Under the pieces are notes generated by a model. It was not told the DNA's origin, ran no database searches, and was given only the letters and a program-made list of their open reading frames with translations. Below are positions 2,285 through 59,834 of a stretch of DNA of 64,000 bases, in pieces. Position 1 is the first letter of the stretch; the number at the start of each line of letters is the position of its first letter. Source of the DNA: a bacterium (GTDB lineage: Bacteria; Zhuqueibacterota; QNDG01; DTFT01); NCBI GenBank assembly GCA_016933415.1, contig JAFGAX010000147.1, positions 8,567 to 72,566 of the forward strand, written 5' to 3'. The position numbers and the translations under genes are program-made.

Positions 2285-2314
2285 GACGCCTGCACAAGCA
2301 GGCGTTGTCTTTTT
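2285..2314 (+). terminator. Rho-independent terminator after the NtrC-type regulator gene
   Basis: GACGCCTGC-acaa-GCAGGCGT hairpin followed by a T-rich tract gtcTTTTTg. Confidence 0.6.
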
Positions 2315-2377
2315 GCTAAGTTACTGTATATAAATAAGTAAGTTGATTCGCCGGGATTCCCGGGGAAATCTGTTTCC

Positions 2378-2392
2378 TGGTATATATTTTGC
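2378..2392 (+). promoter_or_regulatory. Candidate sigma-54 (-24/-12) promoter
   Basis: TGG-N10-TTGC (cTGGtatatattTTGCc) with the correct GG-N10-GC spacing, about 45 nt upstream of the receiver gene and immediately downstream of a sigma-54 activator gene. Confidence 0.45.
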
Positions 2393-2438
2393 CCGATAAA
2401 GTCTCAGAAAGTCACATCCGTATAAGGAAACAGATCCA

Positions 2439-2840
2439 TTGAAAACCTGGAAAAAAAGAGTTTTGATTGTGGACGATGAAGAGGATTTGACCTGGAGCAT
2501 CGTCCGGGGCCTTTCGAAAGACAAATCCGGCGTCGAAGTGCACTGCGCCAGTTCGGGTTCGCTTGCACTGGATCTGATTCATCGTCATTCCTATGACCTG
2601 CTGGTTACGGACGTGCGGATGCCCGGTCTGGACGGAAAGGGTCTCGTGCAACGGGCGCGATCCATGCATCCGGGCCTGAAAATCATCCTGATGACCGCCT
2701 TTCCGTCTCCGGATGTCCGGGAATTCGCGGAACGCTTCCGCATCTCGGAAACCGTGGAAAAGCCTTTTGAGATGGGGGAATTCCGGCGCCTGATCGGGAA
2801 TCACCTGGAGACCGAATCCGCGTCGTCCGGGGCCGCCTGA
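2439..2840 (+). CDS. Single-domain response regulator (CheY-like receiver)
   Basis: VLIVDDEE...LLVTDVRMPGLDG...KIILMTA receiver signature; 133 aa; TTG start preceded by AAGGAAACA. Confidence 0.8.
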   Translation: MKTWKKRVLIVDDEEDLTWSIVRGLSKDKSGVEVHCASSGSLALDLIHRHSYDLLVTDVRMPGLDGKGLVQRARSMHPGLKIILMTAFPSPDVREFAERFRISETVEKPFEMGEFRRLIGNHLETESASSGAA

Positions 2841-2865
2841 CCGATCACACCCGTCATCAACCGCC

Positions 2866-4470
2866 TTGGGGAGAAACGACTTCATGAAAGACGTTCATGC
2901 ATTATCCGCCGCTCCGGACATTCCGCCGGAACGGATGGATGTCTATCAGACATCCATCCGGGTTCTGGGGGCCGGAGGCGCCGGAAACAACACCATCGAC
3001 CGGCTCCTGAGGCTGGGCATCCGGAATGTGGACACGATCGCCCTCAATACGGATGCGCAGCAGCTCCTCGAGACGCATACCCAGCGGCGCATCCTGATCG
3101 GGAAGAACATCACGGCCGGGCTCGGATCCGGCGGTGACCCCCAGATCGGTGAGCGTTCGGCTGAAGAGAACCATGCCGCGATACGCTCCGCGATCGAAGG
3201 CGCCGATTTGCTGTTCATCACCGGCGGACTCGGCGGCGGCACCGCCACGGGCTCCATTCCGATCATCGGGCGTGTGGCCCGTGAGCAGGGGACCCTGACA
3301 ATGGCCATCGTCACCATGCCCTTCTCCGATGAAGGCATCGTGCGCTGGGAGAACGCCCAGATCGGCCTCGAAAAGATACGCAAGAATGTGGATACCGTGA
3401 TTGTCCTGCGCAATGACAAGCTGCACGACCTGTATCCGGACACCACACTGCTCGATGCTTTCCGCAAGGCGGACGAGATACTCATCCACAGCCTCATCGG
3501 GCTGTCCGACCTGGTGCAGAAACGGGGCCTGATCAATCTCGATTTCGCCGACATCCGGTCGGTTCTCACCGACGGTCCCAACGCCGTCATCGGGCTCGGC
3601 GAGAGCCGATCCGAGAACAGGGCCGAGGAGGCCGCGCGGCGCGCCTTCAGCCATCCCATGATGGACTCCGACATCACGGGCGCCCAGAGCGCCATGGTGC
3701 ACATCACCGGAGGGCCCGACCTGACACTGAAGGAATCCCGGCAGGTCATTCAGGCGCTTTCCCGCAAGCTCGACCCGGGGGCGAAAATCATCTGGGGCGT
3801 GACCATCGACAAATCGGTCAAGGGAACCCTGAAAGTCCTGCTCATCGTGACCGGTCTTGTGGAAAAAGAGGATGATTTTCCCAGGCGCCTCGATGAGCCG
3901 GAAGCCGTTTCCCGGCCTTCCCTCGAGACGGAAGGGACGATGCCCGGTCCGCTTCAGCCGATGCGCGACGACGGAAAGAGCATTTTCGACATCAAGGAAT
4001 CCATCATGGCCTCCGGCGAGGAGACCACCACGCTGACGAAACCCAGAAAGGCCGTCGCCCAGTCTTCGCAGATTTTTTACACGATATTCGAAGAGGAGGC
4101 GGCCGCGGACCTGAAGCGTTTCGACCGTGCGGTCCATCTGCTTCGGGAGACGCCGGACAGCCGCAAAGCCCTGCTGGACGCCCTTCAGTCCTGCAAAATG
4201 CTGTTCGCGTCCGCCCAGATGTTCGGATTCGACGAAACCTGCCAGCTGCTCGGCGCGGTGCAGGATATTCTGCAGAGCGTCCACGCGAAGGAAATCCAGA
4301 TGAATCCGAGAATCCTGGATTCCATCACGCTGGCGATCGAGATGGTCGTGGATCTGATGGAAAACCGCTGCGACGGACGCGGCGAAACCGGGTACATCGT
4401 GGACCGGCTTCGGGACCTCCGGAGCGAGCAGATGGAATCCGCGGCTTCCGCGGACGGGAACAAACCCTGA
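2866..4470 (+). CDS. FtsZ/tubulin-family GTPase paralogue with a C-terminal HPt-like extension
   Basis: GAGGAGNN, NTDAQQL, tubulin signature GGLGGGTATG, MPFSDEG, GLINLDFADIRSV and an FtsZ C-domain; then about 200 extra residues whose pattern (F.EEA...L..LL....PD....L......LKxSA.MFGFD....L.......D.L) matches an HPt/CheA-P1 four-helix bundle; no DIPAFLR-type C-terminal peptide. Confidence 0.85.
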   Translation: MGRNDFMKDVHALSAAPDIPPERMDVYQTSIRVLGAGGAGNNTIDRLLRLGIRNVDTIALNTDAQQLLETHTQRRILIGKNITAGLGSGGDPQIGERSAEENHAAIRSAIEGADLLFITGGLGGGTATGSIPIIGRVAREQGTLTMAIVTMPFSDEGIVRWENAQIGLEKIRKNVDTVIVLRNDKLHDLYPDTTLLDAFRKADEILIHSLIGLSDLVQKRGLINLDFADIRSVLTDGPNAVIGLGESRSENRAEEAARRAFSHPMMDSDITGAQSAMVHITGGPDLTLKESRQVIQALSRKLDPGAKIIWGVTIDKSVKGTLKVLLIVTGLVEKEDDFPRRLDEPEAVSRPSLETEGTMPGPLQPMRDDGKSIFDIKESIMASGEETTTLTKPRKAVAQSSQIFYTIFEEEAAADLKRFDRAVHLLRETPDSRKALLDALQSCKMLFASAQMFGFDETCQLLGAVQDILQSVHAKEIQMNPRILDSITLAIEMVVDLMENRCDGRGETGYIVDRLRDLRSEQMESAASADGNKP

Positions 4471-4488
4471 CCGGCGGATGCGCCGCCG

Positions 4489-4527
4489 CCCGTTTCCAGC
4501 CGGCCGGCAGGAAACGGGTTTTTTTTT
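4489..4527 (+). terminator. Rho-independent terminator
   Basis: CCCGTTTCC-12 nt loop-GGAAACGGG followed by nine T residues. Confidence 0.8.
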
Positions 4528-4542
4528 GACGGAGTCATCGGC

Positions 4543-6195
4543 ATGAACCCGCTTGTTCTGCAGTCCGAGAAGCCGGGCCGGTCCAATCAGGACCACGGGC
4601 CGGCGGCGCGCATCGCCGGAGCCGAACAGGTCCGCGCGGACCACGAAACGTATCTGACCGACGAGTCCCGGATGCCGGGCGGTTTTGCGGACGAACTGGT
4701 GTTCGCGGCCAGTGAAAAACAGGTATGCGAAGCGCTGGTCGGAGCCGGGCAAAGGCGCATCCCGGTGACGGTTTCCGGCGCCAGGACGGGCATTGTCGGC
4801 GGAGCGGTCCCGTTCGGCGGGATGCTGTTATCCATGGAATCCTTCAACGGATTCATCGGCGCATTCCGTCCGGACGGGGGAGGAGACTGGCGGATCCGGG
4901 TTGAACCCGGGCTGACGCTGGAAGCGCTGAATCGGATCATTGAAACCGGACTTCCGGCTGGAAACGGCGGACCGGGTTACGACCCGGACCGGTTTCCGGA
5001 AACCCCCCGGTTTCTGGCTGAATCGGCGTCCTGGTTCTATCCGCCTGATCCCACGGAGAAAACCGCGCAACTCGGCGGAACCGTGGCGACCAATGCTTCC
5101 GGATCACGTTCTCTGAAATACGGCCCCACTCGTGATTGGGTGACGGCACTCCGCGTGGCTCTGTCGGACGGGCGTGTGCTGGAACTCCGGAGAGGCGAAT
5201 GCATTTCAGCCGGAGGATCCGCACTGCACATCCGATTCGATGATCAGAAGCGCATCGTGCATCCGCCCAGGATCCGTCCGGTCCGCGTCAAGTCCAACGC
5301 CGGTTACTGGGGCGGAAGGCCCCTGGATTGGATCGATCTGTTCATCGGATCCGAGGGTACGCTCGGGGTCATCACGGAAATCGAACTCCGGCTGGCCCGA
5401 AAGCCGGAATCCGTGTTCGGCGGCCTCGTCTTTTTCCATACCGAGGAACAGGCCCTTTCCTTTGTCCGGCTTGCGGTTTCGCGGGACGGTCCGCGACCGT
5501 CCGTCCTCGAGTTTTTTGACGCGGCCGGCATCCGTTTCGCGGCCGGCAGTGAATCCGGGGCAGTACGGGCTTTTTCTTTTCCGTTCGATCCGGAATCCGC
5601 AGGTTGCGCCGTGTATTTCGAACAGGAATGCGAGACGGACCGCATGGAGGAGTCGCTGGACGGGTACGGCCGGATGCTGTCCGAGTGCGGCAGTTCTATG
5701 GACGAGGCATGGGGCGCGGTCGACGAAAGGGAATTGAGAAGAATCGCGGATTTCCGTCACGCGCTTCCTGAAGCGATCAATACCGTGATCGGCGGGCGCA
5801 AGCGGATTCATCCGGGGATTCACAAGGTTAGCACGGATTTTGCGGTTCCCGGGGAATCCTTTCACGACATGTTCCGGTTCTACCGGGAACACCTGGATCC
5901 GACTGGCATGGAATACGTCATTTTCGGGCATATCGGTGAAAATCATGTTCATCTGAACGTTCTTCCCGGATCGGAGCAGGAACTGACTGCAGCGATACAG
6001 GTCGTACGGGATCTCGCAACCGAAGCAGTTCGGCTGGGCGGCACGGTCAGCGCGGAGCATGGCATCGGAAAGCTTAAAAAACATCTACTTGCCCTCCAAT
6101 TCGGACCGGAGGACCTTGATTCCATGGTCCGTGTAAAAAAAGAACTGGATCCTGGCTGGATTCTCGGCAGAGGATCTCTTTTTGATATCCCCTAA
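4543..6195 (+). CDS. FAD-linked oxidase (GlcD / D-lactate dehydrogenase family)
   Basis: FAD-binding PCMH-type N-terminal domain (VSGARTGIVGGAVP), C-terminal VAO-type domain ending HGIGKLK; 550 aa. Confidence 0.8.
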   Translation: MNPLVLQSEKPGRSNQDHGPAARIAGAEQVRADHETYLTDESRMPGGFADELVFAASEKQVCEALVGAGQRRIPVTVSGARTGIVGGAVPFGGMLLSMESFNGFIGAFRPDGGGDWRIRVEPGLTLEALNRIIETGLPAGNGGPGYDPDRFPETPRFLAESASWFYPPDPTEKTAQLGGTVATNASGSRSLKYGPTRDWVTALRVALSDGRVLELRRGECISAGGSALHIRFDDQKRIVHPPRIRPVRVKSNAGYWGGRPLDWIDLFIGSEGTLGVITEIELRLARKPESVFGGLVFFHTEEQALSFVRLAVSRDGPRPSVLEFFDAAGIRFAAGSESGAVRAFSFPFDPESAGCAVYFEQECETDRMEESLDGYGRMLSECGSSMDEAWGAVDERELRRIADFRHALPEAINTVIGGRKRIHPGIHKVSTDFAVPGESFHDMFRFYREHLDPTGMEYVIFGHIGENHVHLNVLPGSEQELTAAIQVVRDLATEAVRLGGTVSAEHGIGKLKKHLLALQFGPEDLDSMVRVKKELDPGWILGRGSLFDIP

Positions 6196-51477: not shown

Positions 51478-52412
51478 GTGGATTCCTTTCCGCCCGTCTG
51501 GAGCAGCCCGAGATCCGATAGAACCCCGGTGATCCGGGCCCGGCTTGCGGGTTGCACAGGCACCAGCGGAAGACGAAGCACTTCACGGATCCGGCCCATG
51601 CTGGCGAGCGCGGCCTTGACCGGCGCCGGACTGGTCTCGATGAAATTGACGCGCATCAGCGGAAAAATCCGTTTCTGTATTTCCATCGCGCGGCCGAACG
51701 CGCCCTCCAGTCCGGCCCGGACCAGCGCGGACGTTTCAGCCGGCATTTCATTGGACACCACCGAAATCAGCCCGACGCCTCCCAGGGACAGAATCGGGAT
51801 CGTATTGGCGTCGTCTCCGGAAAGCAGGATGAAAGCGTCCGATTTCTTCACGGCCAGTTCCGAAATCTGGTCGATGTTTCCAGAAGCTTCCTTGACGCCG
51901 GCGATGTTGGAAATCTCCGAGAGCCGGAGGACAGTGCCCGGAAGCAGGTTGACGCCGGTTCGGGAAGGCACGTTGTAGAGAAAAATCGGCGCATTCACGG
52001 ACGCGGCCACAGTCTCATAATGACGGAAGAGCCCCTCCTGGGTCGGCCTGTTGTAATACGGCGTGACCGACAGCACGGCGTCCGCGCCGGCCTCATCGAT
52101 GACGGCCCGGGCCATCTCGGCGACGCGGAGCGTGTTGTTTCCGCCGGCACCGGCCATCACCGGCACGCGTCCGGCCGCGGCTTCCACCGTGATCCGAATG
52201 ACGGCCAGATGCTCCTCCCGGCTTAAAACGGCACTCTCGCCCGTACTGCCGCACGGCACCAGAAAATCGATTCCCGCCGCGATCTGCCATTCCACAAGTC
52301 GCCGGAGGGCGTCTTCGTCAAGCGAGCCGTCGTCCCGGAACGGTGTCACCAGCGCGGTGCCGCATCCCCTGAATCTGACCGCGAGCGCATTCAATCCGAT
52401 TGACCCGGTCAT
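51474..52412 (-). CDS. dapA: 4-hydroxy-tetrahydrodipicolinate synthase
   Basis: GTALVTPF, GSTGES, YNVP motifs. Start at the ATG at 52412, overlapping the dapB stop (ATGA); the ORF-track extension to 52484 is rejected. Confidence 0.85.
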   Translation of the reverse strand: MTGSIGLNALAVRFRGCGTALVTPFRDDGSLDEDALRRLVEWQIAAGIDFLVPCGSTGESAVLSREEHLAVIRITVEAAAGRVPVMAGAGGNNTLRVAEMARAVIDEAGADAVLSVTPYYNRPTQEGLFRHYETVAASVNAPIFLYNVPSRTGVNLLPGTVLRLSEISNIAGVKEASGNIDQISELAVKKSDAFILLSGDDANTIPILSLGGVGLISVVSNEMPAETSALVRAGLEGAFGRAMEIQKRIFPLMRVNFIETSPAPVKAALASMGRIREVLRLPLVPVQPASRARITGVLSDLGLLQTGGKEST

Positions 52413-53119
52413 GTCGTCCTCTCTGAAAGTATCTGCTCCAATACTTCGCTGAAATGATAGAATCCGGTCCGGCCCCGGATCCATTCCGCCGCCAGGAGCG
52501 CGCCCGCGGCCAGTCCCTCCCGTCCGCGGGCCGTGTGCACCAGCGTCACCGTGTCCACGGCCGAGTCGAAACTCACGGCATGCCGGCCCGGACTATATCC
52601 CGCGCGCACGCTGGTAACCGGGATGTCGCGGTCCGGGCGGGAACGCGACAGGAGACGGCGCAATTCCAGCGCGGTGCCGGACGGCGCGTCCTTTTTGAAT
52701 TGATGGTGCGTCTCCTCGATGAAGGAGTCGTACTGGCTGAAGGCCGAAAACAATTCGCCGGCGCGTTCCGCGACACGGTAAAACAGATTGACGCCCAGTG
52801 AGAAATTGGCCGCGTGAACAAACCCGATCCCGGACCTCCGGACTTCCGCTTCCGCATCCTTCAGGAAACCGGACCAACCCGTCGTTCCCTCCACCATCGG
52901 AAGGCCGAGTTCCGACGCGATCCGGATATTCCCGGGTACGGCTTCAGCGGACGAGAAATCGATGAGGACATCGGCGCCGGACAGCACCCCGCGGCATTCC
53001 GCGTCCGGTCGGAGCGGACGGGCGTCCCAGAACCGGGCGATGACGCCGTGTCCCTGCTCGACGGCGATCCGTTCCAGGGTACCGCCCATCCGTCCCGTTC
53101 CGATGATTCCGATATTCAT
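52409..53119 (-). CDS. dapB: 4-hydroxy-tetrahydrodipicolinate reductase
   Basis: MNIGIIGTGRMG Rossmann N-terminus, EETHHQFKKDAPSGTA; start at the ATG at 53119, overlapping the lysC stop (ATGA). Confidence 0.85.
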   Translation of the reverse strand: MNIGIIGTGRMGGTLERIAVEQGHGVIARFWDARPLRPDAECRGVLSGADVLIDFSSAEAVPGNIRIASELGLPMVEGTTGWSGFLKDAEAEVRRSGIGFVHAANFSLGVNLFYRVAERAGELFSAFSQYDSFIEETHHQFKKDAPSGTALELRRLLSRSRPDRDIPVTSVRAGYSPGRHAVSFDSAVDTVTLVHTARGREGLAAGALLAAEWIRGRTGFYHFSEVLEQILSERTT

Positions 53120-54510
53120 GGCCGGCCTCCGTCTGGGGTGAACTCGAACAGCGCGGGATCCGGATCCGAGAAAAAATGGCGGTGCAGACGTTTCACCCGG
53201 TCCTCGACTGCGTCCGCCGCGACGATCAGAACGCATGACACCGGCGATACGCCGCAGAAGAATCCTTCGTCGGCCCGGTCCAGCGTGCCGCCGATGCGCT
53301 CGCTCAGGCCCTCCCGGTCCGCATCCAGGCCGGCGCCGACCAGGGCGACAGCGGCCCTTTTTGTCCGGATGACCGGACTGCCGATCCGGCTGAGGGATTC
53401 TAGAAAGGAATCCGTTCCGGGGCCGGGCGTAAAGGTCAGCGACAGGGAGTGTCCGGCCGCGGCCGCCAGTCCCAGTTCGATGCCGGCTTTTTCCGCTTCG
53501 AGAACCGCACGGGACAGGAGGTTCCAGCCCGGAGATTCAGCGCAGGTCAGGCGGACCCAGGTCACGGGCGTCCGGAAGGAGATGGATTTGATCCGGTTCC
53601 GGCCGGCCGTTTCTTCGACGGAAACGATGGTGCCCGCGGCATCGGGCCTTGCGGTGTGCGCGATCCGTATCGGGATGCCGCACCGGACCGCGGGTTCAAC
53701 GGCTTTGGGATGCAGAACACGGGCGCCCCAGAAAGTGAGTTCAGCCGCTTCCCGGTACGAGACCGACTTGACGGTCAGCACTCCCGGAACGCGTTCCGGA
53801 TCCGCGGTCATGATGCCCGGAACATCCTTCCATATCTGTATCTCTGAAACGCCGGCCGCCGCGCCGGTCAGGGCCGCGGTGTAATCGGATCCCTCAAAAC
53901 CGAGCGTCGTGGTGATTCCGTGCCGCGTGGCTCCGATATATCCCTGAAGAACCGGGACGCGTCCCCTTTCCACGGAACCGAAAACCGCCTCGCGGATGCG
54001 GCCGGACGATTCCTCCTCCAGGCAGCGCGCACGGGTGAAACGGTCGTCCGTCAAAACCAGCTGCCGTGAATCGTGCCAGTCCGCATCGATGCCGCTTCTC
54101 CGCAGGGCCCCGCACATCAGAATGGACGAAAGCAGTTCTCCGTAGGACAGCACCTTGTCCTGTGACTGCGGAGACAATTCCCCCAGAACCGCGATTCCGC
54201 CGAGCAGACGCTCCAGTTCTTCAAACCAGTGATGCACCCGGGCGGCTTCCTGCGATTCGGACCAGTCCGTCATGAGCGCCCGGGCGGTGGTCTCGTGACC
54301 CCGGCGGATTTCCGTGAGCGCGTCCATGGCCGGTCCGCTTTTTCCGGACGCCGCTGATTCGGCCGCGTTCAGGAGCCGCCGTGTGGTCTTCCCCATGGCG
54401 GACACCACCAGCAGGGGCCCGAGCTTCAGCCGGTCCGATACGATGCGAAGCACGTTCCGGACGGCGGCCGCGTCTTTCAGCGTGGCGCCGCCGAATTTCA
54501 TGACCATCAC
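53116..54510 (-). CDS. lysC: Aspartate kinase
   Basis: KFGGATL, SAMGKTT, GFEGSDYTAA, WKDVPGIMTADP; C-terminal ACT-like regulatory region; 464 aa. Confidence 0.85.
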   Translation of the reverse strand: MMVMKFGGATLKDAAAVRNVLRIVSDRLKLGPLLVVSAMGKTTRRLLNAAESAASGKSGPAMDALTEIRRGHETTARALMTDWSESQEAARVHHWFEELERLLGGIAVLGELSPQSQDKVLSYGELLSSILMCGALRRSGIDADWHDSRQLVLTDDRFTRARCLEEESSGRIREAVFGSVERGRVPVLQGYIGATRHGITTTLGFEGSDYTAALTGAAAGVSEIQIWKDVPGIMTADPERVPGVLTVKSVSYREAAELTFWGARVLHPKAVEPAVRCGIPIRIAHTARPDAAGTIVSVEETAGRNRIKSISFRTPVTWVRLTCAESPGWNLLSRAVLEAEKAGIELGLAAAAGHSLSLTFTPGPGTDSFLESLSRIGSPVIRTKRAAVALVGAGLDADREGLSERIGGTLDRADEGFFCGVSPVSCVLIVAADAVEDRVKRLHRHFFSDPDPALFEFTPDGGRP

Positions 54511-55514
54511 GGCCGGATTTCCCCGGATTCCCTCAGGCGCCGGACCAGCCGCCGGTAGAGGTCAACGGATTCTTCCAGGTCGGCTATGGCGACGGATTCG
54601 TCCGGCGCGTGCGCGTCCAGAATGGATCCCGGCCCCAGGAGAAGGGGTCGGCCCCAGCGGTTTAAAAGCGGAATATCGGTCGTGAAGGAAACGACCGTGG
54701 TCTCGAAACCATCCACCGCCTCCAGAAAGACGGGGTCGCAGTCGAACAGCGTTTCCATCCCGACACCGGCTCCCACGGCCTGACGGACGCGTCTTTCCGT
54801 TTCGGAGGCGGGGCCCACGCAACGCATCATGACTTCGGCATTCGCGCGGTCCGGGATGATGTTCGCGGCCGTGCCCCCGGCCAGTGTGCCGATGTTCAGC
54901 GATTCCGGACCGAGAACGCCGTGGGTCAGGAGGGGCATTCCCCTGAGGCGGTTCAAGCCGATCAGAAGCTTTTCAATGGCGGATTCCCCCCGCTCCGGAT
55001 AAGCCGAATGGGCCGGTCTTCCGACCGCGGTGAGACGGAACCGAAGCGCGCCCTTGGAACCGAGGGCCAGACGGTTTTCCGTCGGTTCACCGTTGATCAG
55101 GAAACGGCAGCGGTTCGGCAGGGCATTGGCGGCGCGTGCGCCGTCGCTTCCCTTCTCCTCCCCTGCGACGAAAAGCAGACCCGCGTCGCGAACGCCCTCA
55201 CGGGCCAGGGTCAGCGCGGCTTGTACCATCGCCGCCATCGCGCCCTTGGCATCGCAGGCGCCCCGGCCGTAAATGCGGCGGTCATTCTCCGAAGGGCCGA
55301 TGAAGGGCGGAACCGTGTCGAGATGCGTGGACAAAACCACCGAGGGTTCTTCGAAAACCGCGAACAGATTCGAACGGCCGCCGTCGATCGGCTGGAGCGT
55401 CACGGCCATACCCGCGGATTCGAGAAAATCCTTCAGAAAACGGACGAGGCCCGCTTCATTTCCGGTCACGGAATCGATCGCGATCAGACGCCGTGTCAAC
55501 TCGAGTAAATCCAT
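54507..55514 (-). CDS. dapE: M20-family metallohydrolase of the ArgE/DapE type (probably succinyl-diaminopimelate desuccinylase)
   Basis: M20 metal ligands (HLDTV, GRGACDAKG, GEEKG); first gene of the lysC-dapB-dapA-dapD operon; assignment to DapE versus ArgE is by context only. Confidence 0.55.
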   Translation of the reverse strand: MDLLELTRRLIAIDSVTGNEAGLVRFLKDFLESAGMAVTLQPIDGGRSNLFAVFEEPSVVLSTHLDTVPPFIGPSENDRRIYGRGACDAKGAMAAMVQAALTLAREGVRDAGLLFVAGEEKGSDGARAANALPNRCRFLINGEPTENRLALGSKGALRFRLTAVGRPAHSAYPERGESAIEKLLIGLNRLRGMPLLTHGVLGPESLNIGTLAGGTAANIIPDRANAEVMMRCVGPASETERRVRQAVGAGVGMETLFDCDPVFLEAVDGFETTVVSFTTDIPLLNRWGRPLLLGPGSILDAHAPDESVAIADLEESVDLYRRLVRRLRESGEIRP

Positions 55515-55652
55515 GATTCTCCGTTCGATCCGGCATCGCCGGACCTGGTTAAAGTACGTAAAACCCGCAGAAAAGTCAAGGCGCGCTTCATCCGTTCACG
55601 GGCATAAAAATACATTGCTTTTTTGCCGTTTTTTCATCATTTTAAACCGGCG

Positions 55653-56360
55653 ATGAAGAAAAAACTCGTTCTCGACATTCTGCCGCAGCCCGACGACACC
55701 ACCTGCGGACCAACCAGTCTTCATGCGGTTTACCGGTACTTCGGCGAAGTGCTTCCCCTCGAACGCGTCATCTCCGAGGTCCGGCCGCTCGAGGACGGCG
55801 GCACCATGGCGGTTTATCTCGCGCACCATGCCCTGGACCGCGGATACAAAGCCACCATCTACACGTACAATCTACGGGTTTTTGATCCGACCTGGTTCGG
55901 CATGGGAGGCCGATCCCTGCGGGAGAAACTCCTGCTTCAGGCGAGGCAGCATCCCCTGGACCGGGTCCGCGATGCCAGCCGGGCCTACCTGGATTTCCTG
56001 CACAAGGGCGGACGGATCCGGTTCGAGGACGGCACGGCGCAGATCATCCGCAGGACGCTCAGCCGATCCATTCCCATTCTCACCGGCCTTCTGTCCACGT
56101 ACCTGTATCAGTGCAGCCGTGAAACCTCGGAGGGACAGCGCTTGGTTCCGGATGACGTACGGGGCGAGCCCACCGGTCATTTCGTCGTTCTGACCGGGTA
56201 CGACCAGAAGCTGCGCAAAGTGCAGATCGCCGATCCCCTGCGTCACAATCCCTATTCCTCCGATCAGGCGTATGCGGTCGACCTGCAGCGCCTCATCGGG
56301 GCCATTCTGCTGGGAATCCTGACCTATGACGCCAACCTGCTGATCATCGAGCCGCACTAA
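55653..56360 (+). CDS. Papain-like (peptidase C39-like / BtrH_N-like) cysteine peptidase or acyl/aminoacyl transferase domain protein
   Basis: Candidate catalytic Cys in DDTTCGPTSL and His in GHFVVLTGYD, a spacing typical of C39-like domains. ATG at 55653 is preferred over the TTG at 55623 of the ORF track. Confidence 0.6.
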   Translation: MKKKLVLDILPQPDDTTCGPTSLHAVYRYFGEVLPLERVISEVRPLEDGGTMAVYLAHHALDRGYKATIYTYNLRVFDPTWFGMGGRSLREKLLLQARQHPLDRVRDASRAYLDFLHKGGRIRFEDGTAQIIRRTLSRSIPILTGLLSTYLYQCSRETSEGQRLVPDDVRGEPTGHFVVLTGYDQKLRKVQIADPLRHNPYSSDQAYAVDLQRLIGAILLGILTYDANLLIIEPH

Positions 56361-56384
56361 CCGGGAGCGCAATCCGACCGAGAT

Positions 56385-57854
56385 ATGCCGATCCTGATCG
56401 TCGTCACCTCACCCAAGGAATGGCCGCTAAACATCCCCGGCGTCGAACTCGTCTCCGCAAAATCCTATCTGCTGGAGGAGCGTTACGGCGAAATGCGGGG
56501 CGCCAAGGTGTTCAACCTCTGCCGGGATTACCGGTACCAGAGCCTGGGCTATTACGTTTCCCTGATTTCCACGGCCCGGGGCCACACGCCGCTGCCAAGC
56601 GTCATGACCATCCAGGACATGAAATCCCAGCGGATCATCCGGTACGTGTCGGACGAGCTGGATGAACTCATCCAGAAAAGCCTGGAGCCGCTGCAGATGC
56701 GGCGGTTCACGCTCAGCGTCTACTTCGGCAAGAATTTCACAAAAAAATACAGCCGTTTGTCTCAGCACCTGTTCAATCTGTTCCCTTCCCCCCTGCTCCG
56801 GGCCCATTTCGTGTACAACAACAAATGGCAGCTGCAGAGCATCGATCCCATTTCCGCGAGCGAAATTCCGCAGGAACAACTGTCTTTCGTTCTCGAAGTC
56901 GCCTCGGAATATTTCTCGGGACGCCGGTTCTCCGTCCCCAAGCGGCTGCCCCCGCGGTACGACATCGCCATCCTCCACAATCCCGAGGAAGTGAACGGAC
57001 CGTCCGACCCGAAGGCGATCCAGAAATTCATCCGTGCCGCGGAAGCCCTGGACATGTCCGCGGAGCTCATCACCAAGGAGGATCAGGGCCGCCTGCTGGA
57101 ATACGACGCGCTCTTCATCCGGGAGACCACGTCGGTCAACCATTACACCTACCGCCTGGCGCGCCGCGCCGCAGCCGAGGGGCTCGTGGTCATCGACGAT
57201 CCCCTGTCCATCCTGCGCTGCTCGAACAAGGTGTACCTGGCCGAACTGCTGGAGCACCACAGGATTCCGGCGCCCAAGACCCTCATCGTGCACCGGGACA
57301 ACGTCGATTCCGTCATTTCCGAGCTCGGGCTTCCCGTCATCCTCAAGCAGCCCGACAGCACCTACTCGCAGGGCGTCATCAAGATCGAAGACCGGGACGG
57401 TTTCAACGCGGAGGTGGAGCGCCTGCTCGACAAGTCGGAACTGATCATCGCGCAGGAATACACGCCCACGGAATTCGACTGGCGCGTGGGCATTCTCGAC
57501 CACAAGCCGATTTATGTCTGCAAATATTTCATGATGGGACGTCACTGGCAGATCATCAAGAAAACCAGCACGGGACGCTTTCTCGAGGGCCGCTGGGAGA
57601 CGATTCCCGCGGAGATTGCGCCCAAGAAACTGATCCGGACCGCCCTCTGGGCGGCGGACCTGATCGGCGACGGTCTCTACGGCGTGGATCTCAAGGAAAT
57701 CGACGGCAATTTCACGGTCATCGAGGTCAACGACAATCCCACAATCGAGACGGGAGTCGAGGATGACATCCTCAAGGATGACCTCTACACGCGCATCATG
57801 GAGGTTTTTCTGCGCCGCATCGAACGCCTGAAGGAAAGGAATTTCAGGGAATGA
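56385..57854 (+). CDS. RimK-type ATP-grasp amidoligase with a roughly 190-aa uncharacterised N-terminal domain
   Basis: C-terminal two thirds carry a pre-ATP-grasp region and the ATP-grasp fold (ILKQPDSTYSQGV, ELIIAQEY, VIEVNDNP); N-terminal domain with no recognised motif; 489 aa. Confidence 0.8.
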   Translation: MPILIVVTSPKEWPLNIPGVELVSAKSYLLEERYGEMRGAKVFNLCRDYRYQSLGYYVSLISTARGHTPLPSVMTIQDMKSQRIIRYVSDELDELIQKSLEPLQMRRFTLSVYFGKNFTKKYSRLSQHLFNLFPSPLLRAHFVYNNKWQLQSIDPISASEIPQEQLSFVLEVASEYFSGRRFSVPKRLPPRYDIAILHNPEEVNGPSDPKAIQKFIRAAEALDMSAELITKEDQGRLLEYDALFIRETTSVNHYTYRLARRAAAEGLVVIDDPLSILRCSNKVYLAELLEHHRIPAPKTLIVHRDNVDSVISELGLPVILKQPDSTYSQGVIKIEDRDGFNAEVERLLDKSELIIAQEYTPTEFDWRVGILDHKPIYVCKYFMMGRHWQIIKKTSTGRFLEGRWETIPAEIAPKKLIRTALWAADLIGDGLYGVDLKEIDGNFTVIEVNDNPTIETGVEDDILKDDLYTRIMEVFLRRIERLKERNFRE

Positions 57855-59089
57855 GCCGGAAACCGCTCGGCCTTTTCGGCGGTTTCGGCATCGAGCTTGA
57901 ATACATGATCGTCCGCGGCCGGGATTGCTCGGTTTTCCCCGTTTCAGACCGCGTGCTCAGCCGGTTCAACGGATCACTGTCCTCTGAAATCCGCCGGGGC
58001 GCGCTCGACTGGTCCAATGAACTGGTTCTCCATGTCATCGAACTGAAGACCCACGGCCCTGCGCCCAGGCTCGAATCTCTGCCCTCCCTTTTTCAAACGG
58101 ACGTCTCCGCGATCAACGCCTTTCTGGAACCGCAGGGCGGCCGGCTTCTGCCGACGGCCATGCATCCCTGGATGGACCCGTCACGGGAGACGCGGCTTTG
58201 GCCGCACGAATACAACGAAGTGTACGAGGCCTACAACCGCATTTTCGGCTGCAGCGGCCATGGATGGGCCAATCTCCAGAGCATGCACCTGAACCTGCCC
58301 TTCGCGGACGACCGTGAATTCGGACGCCTGCATGCGGCCATCCGCCTGATCCTCCCCCTTCTGCCCGCCCTGGCCGCGAGTTCGCCGGTCGTCGAAGGCC
58401 GGCCCACGGGGCTTCTCGACAGCCGGATCGAGTTTTACAGAAAGAACCAGGCCCGTGTGCCTTCCCTCACGGGCTCGGTCATCCCGGAACCCGTCCATAC
58501 GGAGGCGGATTATCGGCGCGAGATACTGGCGCGTCTTTACCGTGACATCGCCCCTCTGGATGAAGCCCGCTGTCTTCAGCACGAGTGGCTGAACTCGCGG
58601 GGCGCCATCGCCCGATTCGAGCGTCATGCGATCGAGATCCGGCTGATCGACGTTCAGGAATGCCCCCTGGCTGACCTGACCGTGGCGGCCGCGGTGGTCG
58701 GCGCGCTCCGCCTGCTGGATTCCGCGGAAGTCACGGGCCCGGACCCGCGGCGCTTCTTTCCCACGGACGCACTATCGGACCTGCTGACGCGGACCATCCG
58801 GGACGGCGAATACGCGCCGGTTCCGGATCGATCCTATCAGAAAGCGCTCGGGCTCCGTCCGGACGCGTCGGCGACAGCGGGCGCGATCTGGCGCCGGCTG
58901 GCGGAGCGCATGTCCGGAGATCTTCTCGATCCCGTCTGGCACGCGCCGCTGAAGACGATTCTCGACCGGGGTCCGCTGGCCCGCCGGATGCTGCGCGTTC
59001 TGAACGATGATTTTTCCCGATCCGCCGTGATGGCGCTCTGCAACAGGCTGGCGGACTGCCTTTCCGAAGGACGGCTGCTGGATGCCTGA
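57851..59089 (+). CDS. GCS2/YbdK-family carboxylate-amine ligase (glutamate-cysteine-ligase-like)
   Basis: GIELEYMIV, HVIELKT and the HLNLP region typical of the GCS2 glutamine-synthetase-like fold; start overlaps the ATP-grasp stop (ATGA); 412 aa. Confidence 0.8.
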   Translation: MSRKPLGLFGGFGIELEYMIVRGRDCSVFPVSDRVLSRFNGSLSSEIRRGALDWSNELVLHVIELKTHGPAPRLESLPSLFQTDVSAINAFLEPQGGRLLPTAMHPWMDPSRETRLWPHEYNEVYEAYNRIFGCSGHGWANLQSMHLNLPFADDREFGRLHAAIRLILPLLPALAASSPVVEGRPTGLLDSRIEFYRKNQARVPSLTGSVIPEPVHTEADYRREILARLYRDIAPLDEARCLQHEWLNSRGAIARFERHAIEIRLIDVQECPLADLTVAAAVVGALRLLDSAEVTGPDPRRFFPTDALSDLLTRTIRDGEYAPVPDRSYQKALGLRPDASATAGAIWRRLAERMSGDLLDPVWHAPLKTILDRGPLARRMLRVLNDDFSRSAVMALCNRLADCLSEGRLLDA

Positions 59090-59834
59090 CCGCCTTTTTC
59101 TGGTCTTGACCTGCGAGCACGCCTCGCCATTCCTTCCGTCTGATTTCCGGAAAAAATTCCGCGATCGGATTGAACGGATACCGGAGCATCGTCTGTTTGA
59201 CCGCGGCGCGGCGGTACTGGCCCGGAATCTTGCGGACCGTTTCCGTGCTCCCCTGATCCGCTCCCGTTTTTCCCGTTTGCTCGTGGATCTCAACCGGTCC
59301 GAGGAACATCGGGAATTGTTCTCGGAATTGTCCGCGACACTGCCGGAAGCGCGGAAAAAAGCCCTGATCTCCCGGGTGCACCGTCGATACCGCGACTCCG
59401 TCGAGAGCCTCGTGGACCGTCTGATCCGCCGGGGAACCGCCGTCCTCCATGTTTCCGTACACACGTTCACGCCGGTCCTGAACGGCGAGTGCCGCCAAAC
59501 GGGAATCGGACTGCTTTTCGACCCTTCCCGTTCCTTCGAGAGACGGTTGTGCCTTTTCTGGCGGCGAAGGTTGAAAGACGAGTGTCCCGGCTTGGCGATC
59601 CATTTCAACCGGCCCTATCATGGCCGGTCGGACGGATTCACGAAGTGTCTGAGAGAAGGAAGGTCGGACAGCCGATATGCGGGCATTGAATTGGAGGTCA
59701 ATCAGTTGTTCTTCGCGCCCGGAAAAACCGTGGAGGCGCGTCGCGTCAGGGGCGCCATCGCGCGGAGCCTCGCGGCCGCGGTTTCGGATCTGACCGGCGC
59801 GCCCGCTTCCGGTTCAGTCCGAACACGAGGTTGA
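59082..59834 (+). CDS. N-formylglutamate amidohydrolase (FGase) family zinc hydrolase
   Basis: LVLTCEHAS, LLVDLNRS, LHVSVHTFTP motifs of the FGase family; start overlaps the upstream gene by 8 nt; 250 aa. Confidence 0.75.
   Translation: MPDRLFLVLTCEHASPFLPSDFRKKFRDRIERIPEHRLFDRGAAVLARNLADRFRAPLIRSRFSRLLVDLNRSEEHRELFSELSATLPEARKKALISRVHRRYRDSVESLVDRLIRRGTAVLHVSVHTFTPVLNGECRQTGIGLLFDPSRSFERRLCLFWRRRLKDECPGLAIHFNRPYHGRSDGFTKCLREGRSDSRYAGIELEVNQLFFAPGKTVEARRVRGAIARSLAAAVSDLTGAPASGSVRTRG

Follow-up and report, generated by a model that had tools for sequence, protein, structure and literature searches.

What would a bacterium build, and then take apart, with two different amide-forming ligases and two hydrolase-type enzymes encoded side by side? 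The question is raised by four adjoining genes at positions 55653-59834 of a 64,000-nucleotide stretch from an uncultured bacterium of the Zhuqueibacterota (GenBank assembly GCA_016933415.1, contig JAFGAX010000147.1, positions 8,567 to 72,566), hereafter called the window. They encode, in this order, a C39-like papain-fold cysteine enzyme, a RimK-type ATP-grasp ligase with an N-terminal RLAN domain, a GCS2 carboxylate-amine (COOH-NH2) ligase and a hydrolase of the FGase family. The four genes are a genuine, tightly packed operon, their linkage across bacteria is far beyond chance, and the cassette that they form is already catalogued (a Pfam family is dedicated to its RLAN domain), very common and functionally orphan. 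The reading that we favour, with a probability of roughly 45%, is a self-contained cytoplasmic cycle that would build and remove a small glutamate-containing peptide or amide by a non-ribosomal route.

A conserved four-gene cassette

The four open reading frames (ORFs) all lie on the plus strand and are co-translated (Table 1). The TAA of gene 1 (56358-56360) is separated from the ATG of gene 2 (56385) by a 24-nucleotide spacer, as read directly in the sequence. Genes 2 and 3 overlap by 4 nucleotides in a common ATGA (57851-57854), and the ATG of gene 4 (59082) lies inside gene 3, whose TGA occupies 59087-59089, an overlap of 8 nucleotides. The original prediction, made from the letters of this DNA, had claimed an operon with junctions of 24, -4 (ATGA) and -8 nucleotides, and the coordinates are exactly as it described them. 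For gene 1 the ATG at 55653 is favoured over a longer reading from the TTG at 55623; in the homologue alignment 26 homologues begin there.

Table 1. Coordinates of the cassette genes, of the RLAN domain and of the divergent neighbours in the window.
Feature	Position	Strand	Remarks
Gene 1: C39-like papain-fold cysteine enzyme, 235 aa, predicted cytoplasmic	55653-56360	+	Gln12, Cys18, His176, Asp194 present
Gene 2: RLAN + RimK-type ATP-grasp ligase, 489 aa	56385-57854	+	Pfam RLAN 6e-46, RimK 9e-9
RLAN domain, aa 26-170 of the ATP-grasp protein	56460-56894	+	invariant R50-Y51-Q52...G55-Y56-Y57...R65-x-H67 patch
Gene 3: divergent GCS2 carboxylate-amine ligase, 412 aa	57851-59089	+	Pfam GCS2 8e-28
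Gene 4: FGase-family (N-formylglutamate-amidohydrolase-like) metallo-amidohydrolase, 250 aa; accessory fourth gene	59082-59834	+	Pfam FGase 1.6e-22
Divergent intergenic region, diaminopimelate (DAP)/lysine operon (minus) to cassette (plus)	55515-55652		138 bp; presumed promoter region
DAP-pathway lysine operon, succinylase type	52409-55514	-	DapE-like M20 peptidase (start 55514), aspartokinase, DapB

The same arrangement recurs far outside this lineage. When one genome per species was scanned, at least 599 loci proved to encode a relative of the ATP-grasp, and the same number of species genomes, as a lower bound, carry the cassette, spread over more than 10 phyla; the best 80 loci were taken for comparison. 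They belong to the Planctomycetota, Bacteroidota, Verrucomicrobiota, Acidobacteriota, Nitrospirota, Myxococcota, Desulfobacterota, Spirochaetota and Fibrobacterota, to the Gamma- and Betaproteobacteria and to other groups. The C39-like, ATP-grasp and GCS2 genes stand in fixed order in 71 of the 80 loci: a tblastn search with the window proteins found all four genes in 46 and the first three only in 25, the order being always identical. The cassette of a near-identical relative (94-96% identity, locus L081) has the same layout as that of the window. The ATP-grasp and GCS2 genes overlap stop to start, or abut, in other loci too, and across loci the four proteins diverge in step, their pairwise distances being correlated (r = 0.5-0.65), with mean identities of 54% for the ATP-grasp, 52% for the C39-like enzyme, 47% for the GCS2 ligase and 39% for the FGase. 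Order, overlaps and protein distances agree across loci, and the cassette is thus passed on, and maintained by selection, as a whole. Purifying selection on it is strong, and its four enzymes have intact active sites. The linkage that the original prediction expected across bacteria is thus borne out, and the genes are not individually scattered.

The fourth gene is an accessory member. An FGase is present in at least 47 of the 80 loci, the 46 found by tblastn and a divergent copy at locus L079 (9707-10507). That copy, in a locus scored as FGase-less by tblastn, overlaps the GCS2 stop and occupies the fourth slot with a non-orthologous FGase which is 16% identical to the window protein, matches the Pfam family at 9e-19 and carries large insertions; the replacement suggests that an FGase-type activity, rather than one particular protein, is needed. 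Some of the remaining loci lie on truncated contigs, and others end after GCS2 and are followed by a convergent gene.

Nothing else travels with the cassette. When the flanking ORFs of the 80 loci were clustered, no further family was present in more than 7 of them; across these loci we found no conserved transporter, regulator, carrier protein, tailoring enzyme, resistance gene or exporter, and within 600 bp of the cassette ends no small ORF or precursor peptide conserved beyond closely related genome pairs. The original prediction had noted the lack of a transporter, regulator or precursor peptide in the window, and the comparison extends that observation to the 80 loci. A graspetide or another RiPP (a peptide made on the ribosome and modified after translation) was considered and rejected: no precursor peptide gene adjoins the ATP-grasp, and upstream of the cassette the window offers only the 138-bp spacer.

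The four predicted enzymes

Family membership was judged by Pfam gathering scores and equivalog identity by the curated cut-offs of NCBIfam. Each protein scores above the Pfam cut-off of the family that had been proposed for it: Peptidase_C39_2 for gene 1 (38.7 bits, cut-off 24), RLAN (PF14401; 156.2 bits, cut-off 25, covering model positions 2-148 of 150) and RimK (PF08443; 35.7 bits, cut-off 21) for gene 2, GCS2 (PF04107; 98 bits, cut-off 21) for gene 3 and FGase (PF05013; 81.2 bits, cut-off 28.9) for gene 4. The RimK score places gene 2 in the RimK-like clade, and the extra N-terminal domain that had been suspected on it is a named one, RLAN being the Pfam name for the 'RimK-like ATPgrasp N-terminal domain'. 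For none of the four proteins is the cut-off of an NCBIfam model attained, and this includes the models for RimK, LysX, GshA, GshB, YbdK and EgtA. Because all these cut-offs are missed, the cassette would encode neither ordinary glutathione synthesis nor the canonical modification of ribosomal protein S6; to judge from their sequences, its ligases are subfamilies distinct from the known RimK, GshA, GshB and EgtA enzymes.

The ATP-grasp is the best conserved of the four, with about 54-62% identity across phyla and matches in over 8000 protein clusters built at 90% identity; PF14401 is common to all the homologues listed, and nearly all of these also carry PF08443. Its solved sequence relatives are RimK and LysX (E values of 1e-8 to 1e-11). 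The residues N281-K282, K321, Q357-E358, D435 and E447-x-N449 are invariant and align with the ATP/Mg motifs of Pseudomonas RimK (7qys). The NCBIfam scores are 65.4 bits against a cut-off of 143.4 for rimK_fam, 63.8 against 275.6 for LysX, 26.1 against 331 for the S6 ligase model PRK10446 and 24-42 against 272-408 for the GshB models (23.9 against 272 for PRK05246), and the protein was rejected as a bona fide RimK (S6--L-glutamate ligase), LysX or GshB equivalog. An internal duplication, suggested by structure, was not supported by hhalign (probability 0.2%) and was set aside.

Solitary RLAN-ATP-grasp genes also occur, in Gallionellaceae, Gallionella, Nitrosomonas and Verrucomicrobiota (L049 7001-8509, L053 1170-2642, L070 4027-5499 and L008 7001-8470), and at these four loci no C39-like, GCS2 or FGase neighbour was detectable. 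They adjoin unrelated genes, among them those for a Lon-like protease, CorA, a small metal-binding protein and a Kdo transferase. Two adjacent ORFs without a Pfam match (L053 445-1173 and L008 8510-9907) might be very divergent partners.

In the GCS2 ligase, the acidic, His, Arg and other residues that are invariant among 30 homologues include E15, E17, H61, E64, H146, N148, R250, E262 and R264. A single-sequence search found no relative of solved structure; a profile of the 30 homologues reached YbdK (1r8g) at an E value of 8e-4 and plant GCL at 3e-3. The NCBIfam scores, 43.8 bits against 176.4 for the YbdK family, 28.3 against 249 for gshA_cyano and 15.7 against 370.8 for EgtA, led us to reject a GshA, YbdK or EgtA equivalog.

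The C39-like enzyme lies slightly under the cut-off of Peptidase C39 itself (PF03412; 21.7 bits against 22) and has the Gln/Cys/His/Asp catalytic set of that family: in a multi-phylum alignment Q12, C18 and H176 never vary, and D194 does so rarely if at all. It is a stand-alone protein, with no ABC transporter and no conserved small ORF that could be a double-glycine precursor nearby. Its nearest structural relatives are double-glycine peptidases, an isopeptidase and UfSP/Josephin-type proteases.

The only match of the FGase protein to a solved structure is the uncharacterised Atu2144 (2odf, 5.5e-18). Its invariant residues are H13, D40, R65, N71, R72, H127, R138, D147, N176 and E205; by analogy with the M14 carboxypeptidases, we take H13, D40 and H127 to be the metal ligands, E205 to be catalytic and the Asn-Arg pair to bind a carboxylate. 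A HutG N-formylglutamate amidohydrolase was rejected: there is no NCBIfam match, and the hut genes hutH, hutU, hutI and hutF were found neither in the window flanks nor as any cluster conserved among the 80 loci.

No signal peptide was found in any of the four proteins. Because the catalytic sets are intact and signal peptides are lacking, all four are predicted to be active cytoplasmic enzymes. A search with PADLOC gave no match of the four proteins to an anti-phage defence system.

A putative glutamate amide cycle and its alternatives

What could these enzymes do together? The characterised GCS2 enzymes activate the γ-carboxyl of free glutamate, the FGase enzymes hydrolyse N-acyl-glutamate, and the enzymes of the RimK clade add an amino acid, usually Glu, to the terminal carboxylate of a peptide, a cofactor or a protein. 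By analogy with these families, it is almost certain that a glutamate-type amide or peptide is made and trimmed by the cassette. In the cycle that we propose, the first step would fall to the GCS2 ligase: it would turn a carboxylate, most plausibly the γ-carboxyl of glutamate, into an acyl-phosphate and join it to a small amine or an amino acid. Next, the RimK-type ATP-grasp would lengthen this product at a free carboxylate by L-glutamate or another amino acid, possibly more than once, in a step like that of GshB, RimK, CofF and MptN, and the RLAN domain would supply an additional conserved binding surface. The FGase-like enzyme would hydrolyse a terminal bond of the N-acyl-glutamate type, leaving the other amide to be cleaved, or used in transpeptidation, by the C39-like Cys/His enzyme. 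Encoded together, synthesis and removal would constitute a homeostatic cycle rather than the pathway of an exported natural product. The substrates, the order of the steps and the small-molecule nature of the product are drawn from family precedent and would follow it: all the characterised GCS2 and FGase enzymes act, to our knowledge, on small molecules, and the small-molecule ligases GshB, CofF and MptN of the RimK clade are among the weak NCBIfam matches of the ATP-grasp. We favour a small-molecule cycle because the active sites are intact, the gene order is fixed, nothing else is conserved nearby and signal peptides are lacking, in addition to this precedent. The operon anatomy, the family assignments, the recurrent ATP-grasp/GCS2 overlaps, the correlated divergence, the replacement of the FGase at L079 and the successive peptide ligations described for such ligase pairs (PMC4431377) also count in its favour.

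Several observations weigh against such a cycle. By structure, the C39-like enzyme is closest to enzymes that process peptides and proteins; the FGase is missing in about a third of the loci; how highly the ATP-grasp and the RLAN surface patch are conserved is also compatible with recognition of a conserved macromolecule; and the existence of solitary RLAN-ATP-grasp genes means that this ligase may not depend on a GCS2 product. The metabolite pathway read from these genes in the original prediction would have to compete above all with a reversible tagging of protein or peptide C-termini, analogous to the pairs RimK/RimB, TTLL/CCP and PafA/Dop, which we hold to be possible though unlikely. Here the ATP-grasp would add one or more glutamates to a conserved protein encoded elsewhere and docked by RLAN, the GCS2 enzyme would add or cross-link a further residue through a γ-carboxyl (by analogy with PafA), and the carboxypeptidase-like FGase together with the C39-like enzyme would remove the tag or process the target. 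In its favour are the strong conservation and the RLAN patch, the kinship of the C39-like enzyme with protein-processing enzymes, and the solitary genes. Against it, no candidate gene for a target or a tag is conserved in or near the cassette, the ATP-grasp scores under the rimK_fam and S6-ligase cut-offs, and the known activities of the characterised GCS2 and FGase enzymes are all on small molecules. In its boldest form, which seems to us rather improbable, the cassette would be an unrecognised and widespread bacterial counterpart of TTLL/CCP or PafA/Dop, reversibly tagging a conserved protein, with RLAN as a structurally degenerate half ATP-grasp that docks the target, the RimK-type domain adding glutamates at the C-terminus, the GCS2 ligase branching or cross-linking through a γ-carboxyl and the C39-like and FGase enzymes specialised in removing the tag.

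A GCS2 ligase, a GshB-related ATP-grasp and a papain-fold enzyme also recall a thiol-peptide pathway of the glutathione/phytochelatin type, in which the GCS2 enzyme would make γ-Glu-Cys, the ATP-grasp would append a C-terminal residue as GshB does and the papain-fold enzyme would deglycinate or transpeptidate the product in the manner of phytochelatin synthase. We consider this very unlikely. The cut-offs of GshA, GshB and EgtA are far off (28 bits against 249 for gshA_cyano, 24 against 272 for PRK05246), which sets aside the ordinary gshA/gshB pair that the original prediction had named as an outcome that would refute it; the GCS2 profile matches plant GCL (3e-3) and YbdK (8e-4) weakly; C39 double-glycine peptidases are nearer to gene 1 than phytochelatin synthase is; the FGase would have no role; and the cassette is present in lineages that bear the names of sulfate reducers and of Fibrobacteres/Chitinispirillia, where glutathione is generally not expected. 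The same combination of an ATP-grasp with a papain-fold enzyme occurs in carrier-dependent secondary metabolism of the butirosin (BtrJ/BtrH/BtrG) or closthioamide (CtaD/CtaG) type; there the role of the ATP-grasp would be to load an intermediate tethered to a carrier, or to extend it, and that of the papain-fold enzyme to serve as a transacylase. For the cassette this is highly improbable: in the 80 loci, genes for acyl or peptidyl carrier proteins, tailoring enzymes, resistance or export are not conserved with it, the flanks in the window are housekeeping genes of the DAP pathway and those for RluD, LspA, DksA and IleS, and C39 and C39_2 are much closer to gene 1 than the BtrH-type proteins are.

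Surroundings and closest known systems

The cassette of the window is flanked on both sides by housekeeping genes. Upstream, as had been claimed, it diverges from a lysine operon across a 138-bp spacer, in which we found no consensus sigma-70 match and for which the promoter and terminator scan remained at or below the shuffle expectation; no Rfam or riboswitch match was obtained in this region of the window or in nine diverse loci. In the close relative (L081 3014-7863) the M20 peptidase, aspartokinase and DapB genes are followed by DapA and DapD. The neighbourhood of the DAP operon is lineage-specific, being observed only in the window and in this relative and not in the other 80 loci. Downstream lie convergent genes for RluD, LspA, a DksA/TraR protein and IleS. 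The G+C content is 0.59-0.60 over the first two cassette genes and 0.64-0.66 over the upstream DAP operon and GCS2 (window 55500-58000 compared with its flanks), a mild dip that could reflect either horizontal acquisition or amino-acid constraints.

Two side observations concern other loci. Genes resembling those for anthranilate or aminodeoxychorismate synthase (TrpE/PabB-like and TrpG/PabA-like) lie near the cassette in 5-7 of the 80 loci, from several phyla (L002 9826-11893; L040 11919-13424; L057, L068 and L069 at about 2300-4600; L009, L014 and L025 at about 3800-5070), and in L002 they come directly after GCS2, in the place of the FGase; this may be coincidence. In Thiobacillus thioparus, some 4 kb downstream of the cassette, there is a selenocysteine tRNA (L045 14129-14220, minus strand, 74.5 bits), which is unrelated to it.

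The original prediction had also mentioned a published linkage of RimK-like ATP-grasp, GCS2 and FGase genes. The 2009 survey of Iyer, Abhiman, Burroughs and Aravind (Mol Biosyst 5:1636) reportedly names exactly the four genes of the cassette. The existence of a Pfam family for RLAN is consistent with a published linkage, and PMC4431377, citing Iyer et al. 2009, says that operons linking ATP-grasp with COOH-NH2 ligases had been observed earlier; according to the same paper, the linked ligases catalyse successive peptide ligations. In the literature on RLAN/PF14401, on 'RimK family protein' and on combinations of the four families we found no biochemical or genetic characterisation of the cassette, in keeping with what had been stated. 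A possible exception is suggested by the Francisella tularensis 'rimK' FTT0178c, which by its length (490 aa) and annotation is a candidate RLAN-type ATP-grasp; its deletion did not attenuate the bacterium in mice (PMC2675058), and type B strains carry a disrupted copy (PMC2682660). If FTT0178c is of the RLAN type, Francisella would be a genetically tractable carrier. Klebsiella CfmP was rejected as a characterised relative, being an unrelated, TupA-like ATP-grasp.

The copy in the window is an ordinary member of its family, from an uncultured bacterium and without unusual feature. Its value is that of a pointer to an orphan pathway of which cultured carriers exist, among them Blastopirellula marina DSM 3645, Thiobacillus thioparus DSM 505, Marivirga sericea DSM 4125, Pontibacter ruber, Planctomicrobium sp. 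SH527 and Desulfosediminicola flagellatus, and we regard the cassette as a target for reconstitution experiments rather than as a surprise. Could a widespread cytoplasmic peptide have been waiting behind these genes? If solved, the cassette would yield either a new cytoplasmic glutamate-type peptide or amide, or a new cycle of protein modification.

How, then, does it stand beside the systems already known? With the catalogued RLAN-ATP-grasp/COOH-NH2 ligase neighbourhoods it shares the RLAN domain, the partners and their order, and we detect no difference. With RimK/RimB, the system of S6 poly-glutamylation, it has in common a RimK-clade ATP-grasp with the same ATP/Mg motifs and the adjacency of this ligase to a hydrolase that might reverse the ligation (PMC12239564). 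It differs in that its ATP-grasp falls under the rimK_fam and S6 cut-offs and carries about 200 extra N-terminal residues, RLAN included, that its hydrolases are a papain-fold enzyme and an FGase instead of a retropepsin, and that a second ligase, GCS2, is added. The glutathione route of GshA/GshB with a phytochelatin-synthase-like enzyme resembles it in possessing a GCS2-family ligase, a GshB-related ATP-grasp and a papain-fold enzyme near Alr0975, whereas the cassette misses the GshA, GshB and EgtA cut-offs widely, leaves its FGase unexplained by such a route and bears RLAN on its ATP-grasp. From butirosin BtrJ/BtrH/BtrG and closthioamide CtaD/CtaG it is set apart by the lack of a carrier protein, of a cyclotransferase and of aminoglycoside or thioamide genes, and by a peptidase that is closer to C39 than to BtrH. 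A further likeness is with glutathionylspermidine synthetase/amidase (GspSA), TTLL/CCP and PafA/Dop, whose common design is an ATP-dependent amide ligase encoded with a hydrolase that undoes its bond: a papain-like CHAP domain is found in GspSA, an M14 carboxypeptidase in CCP and a glutamine synthetase-like ligase in PafA. The cassette belongs to none of these systems at the level of sequence, and it deploys the same design as two ligases and two hydrolases that are separate proteins encoded in one operon.

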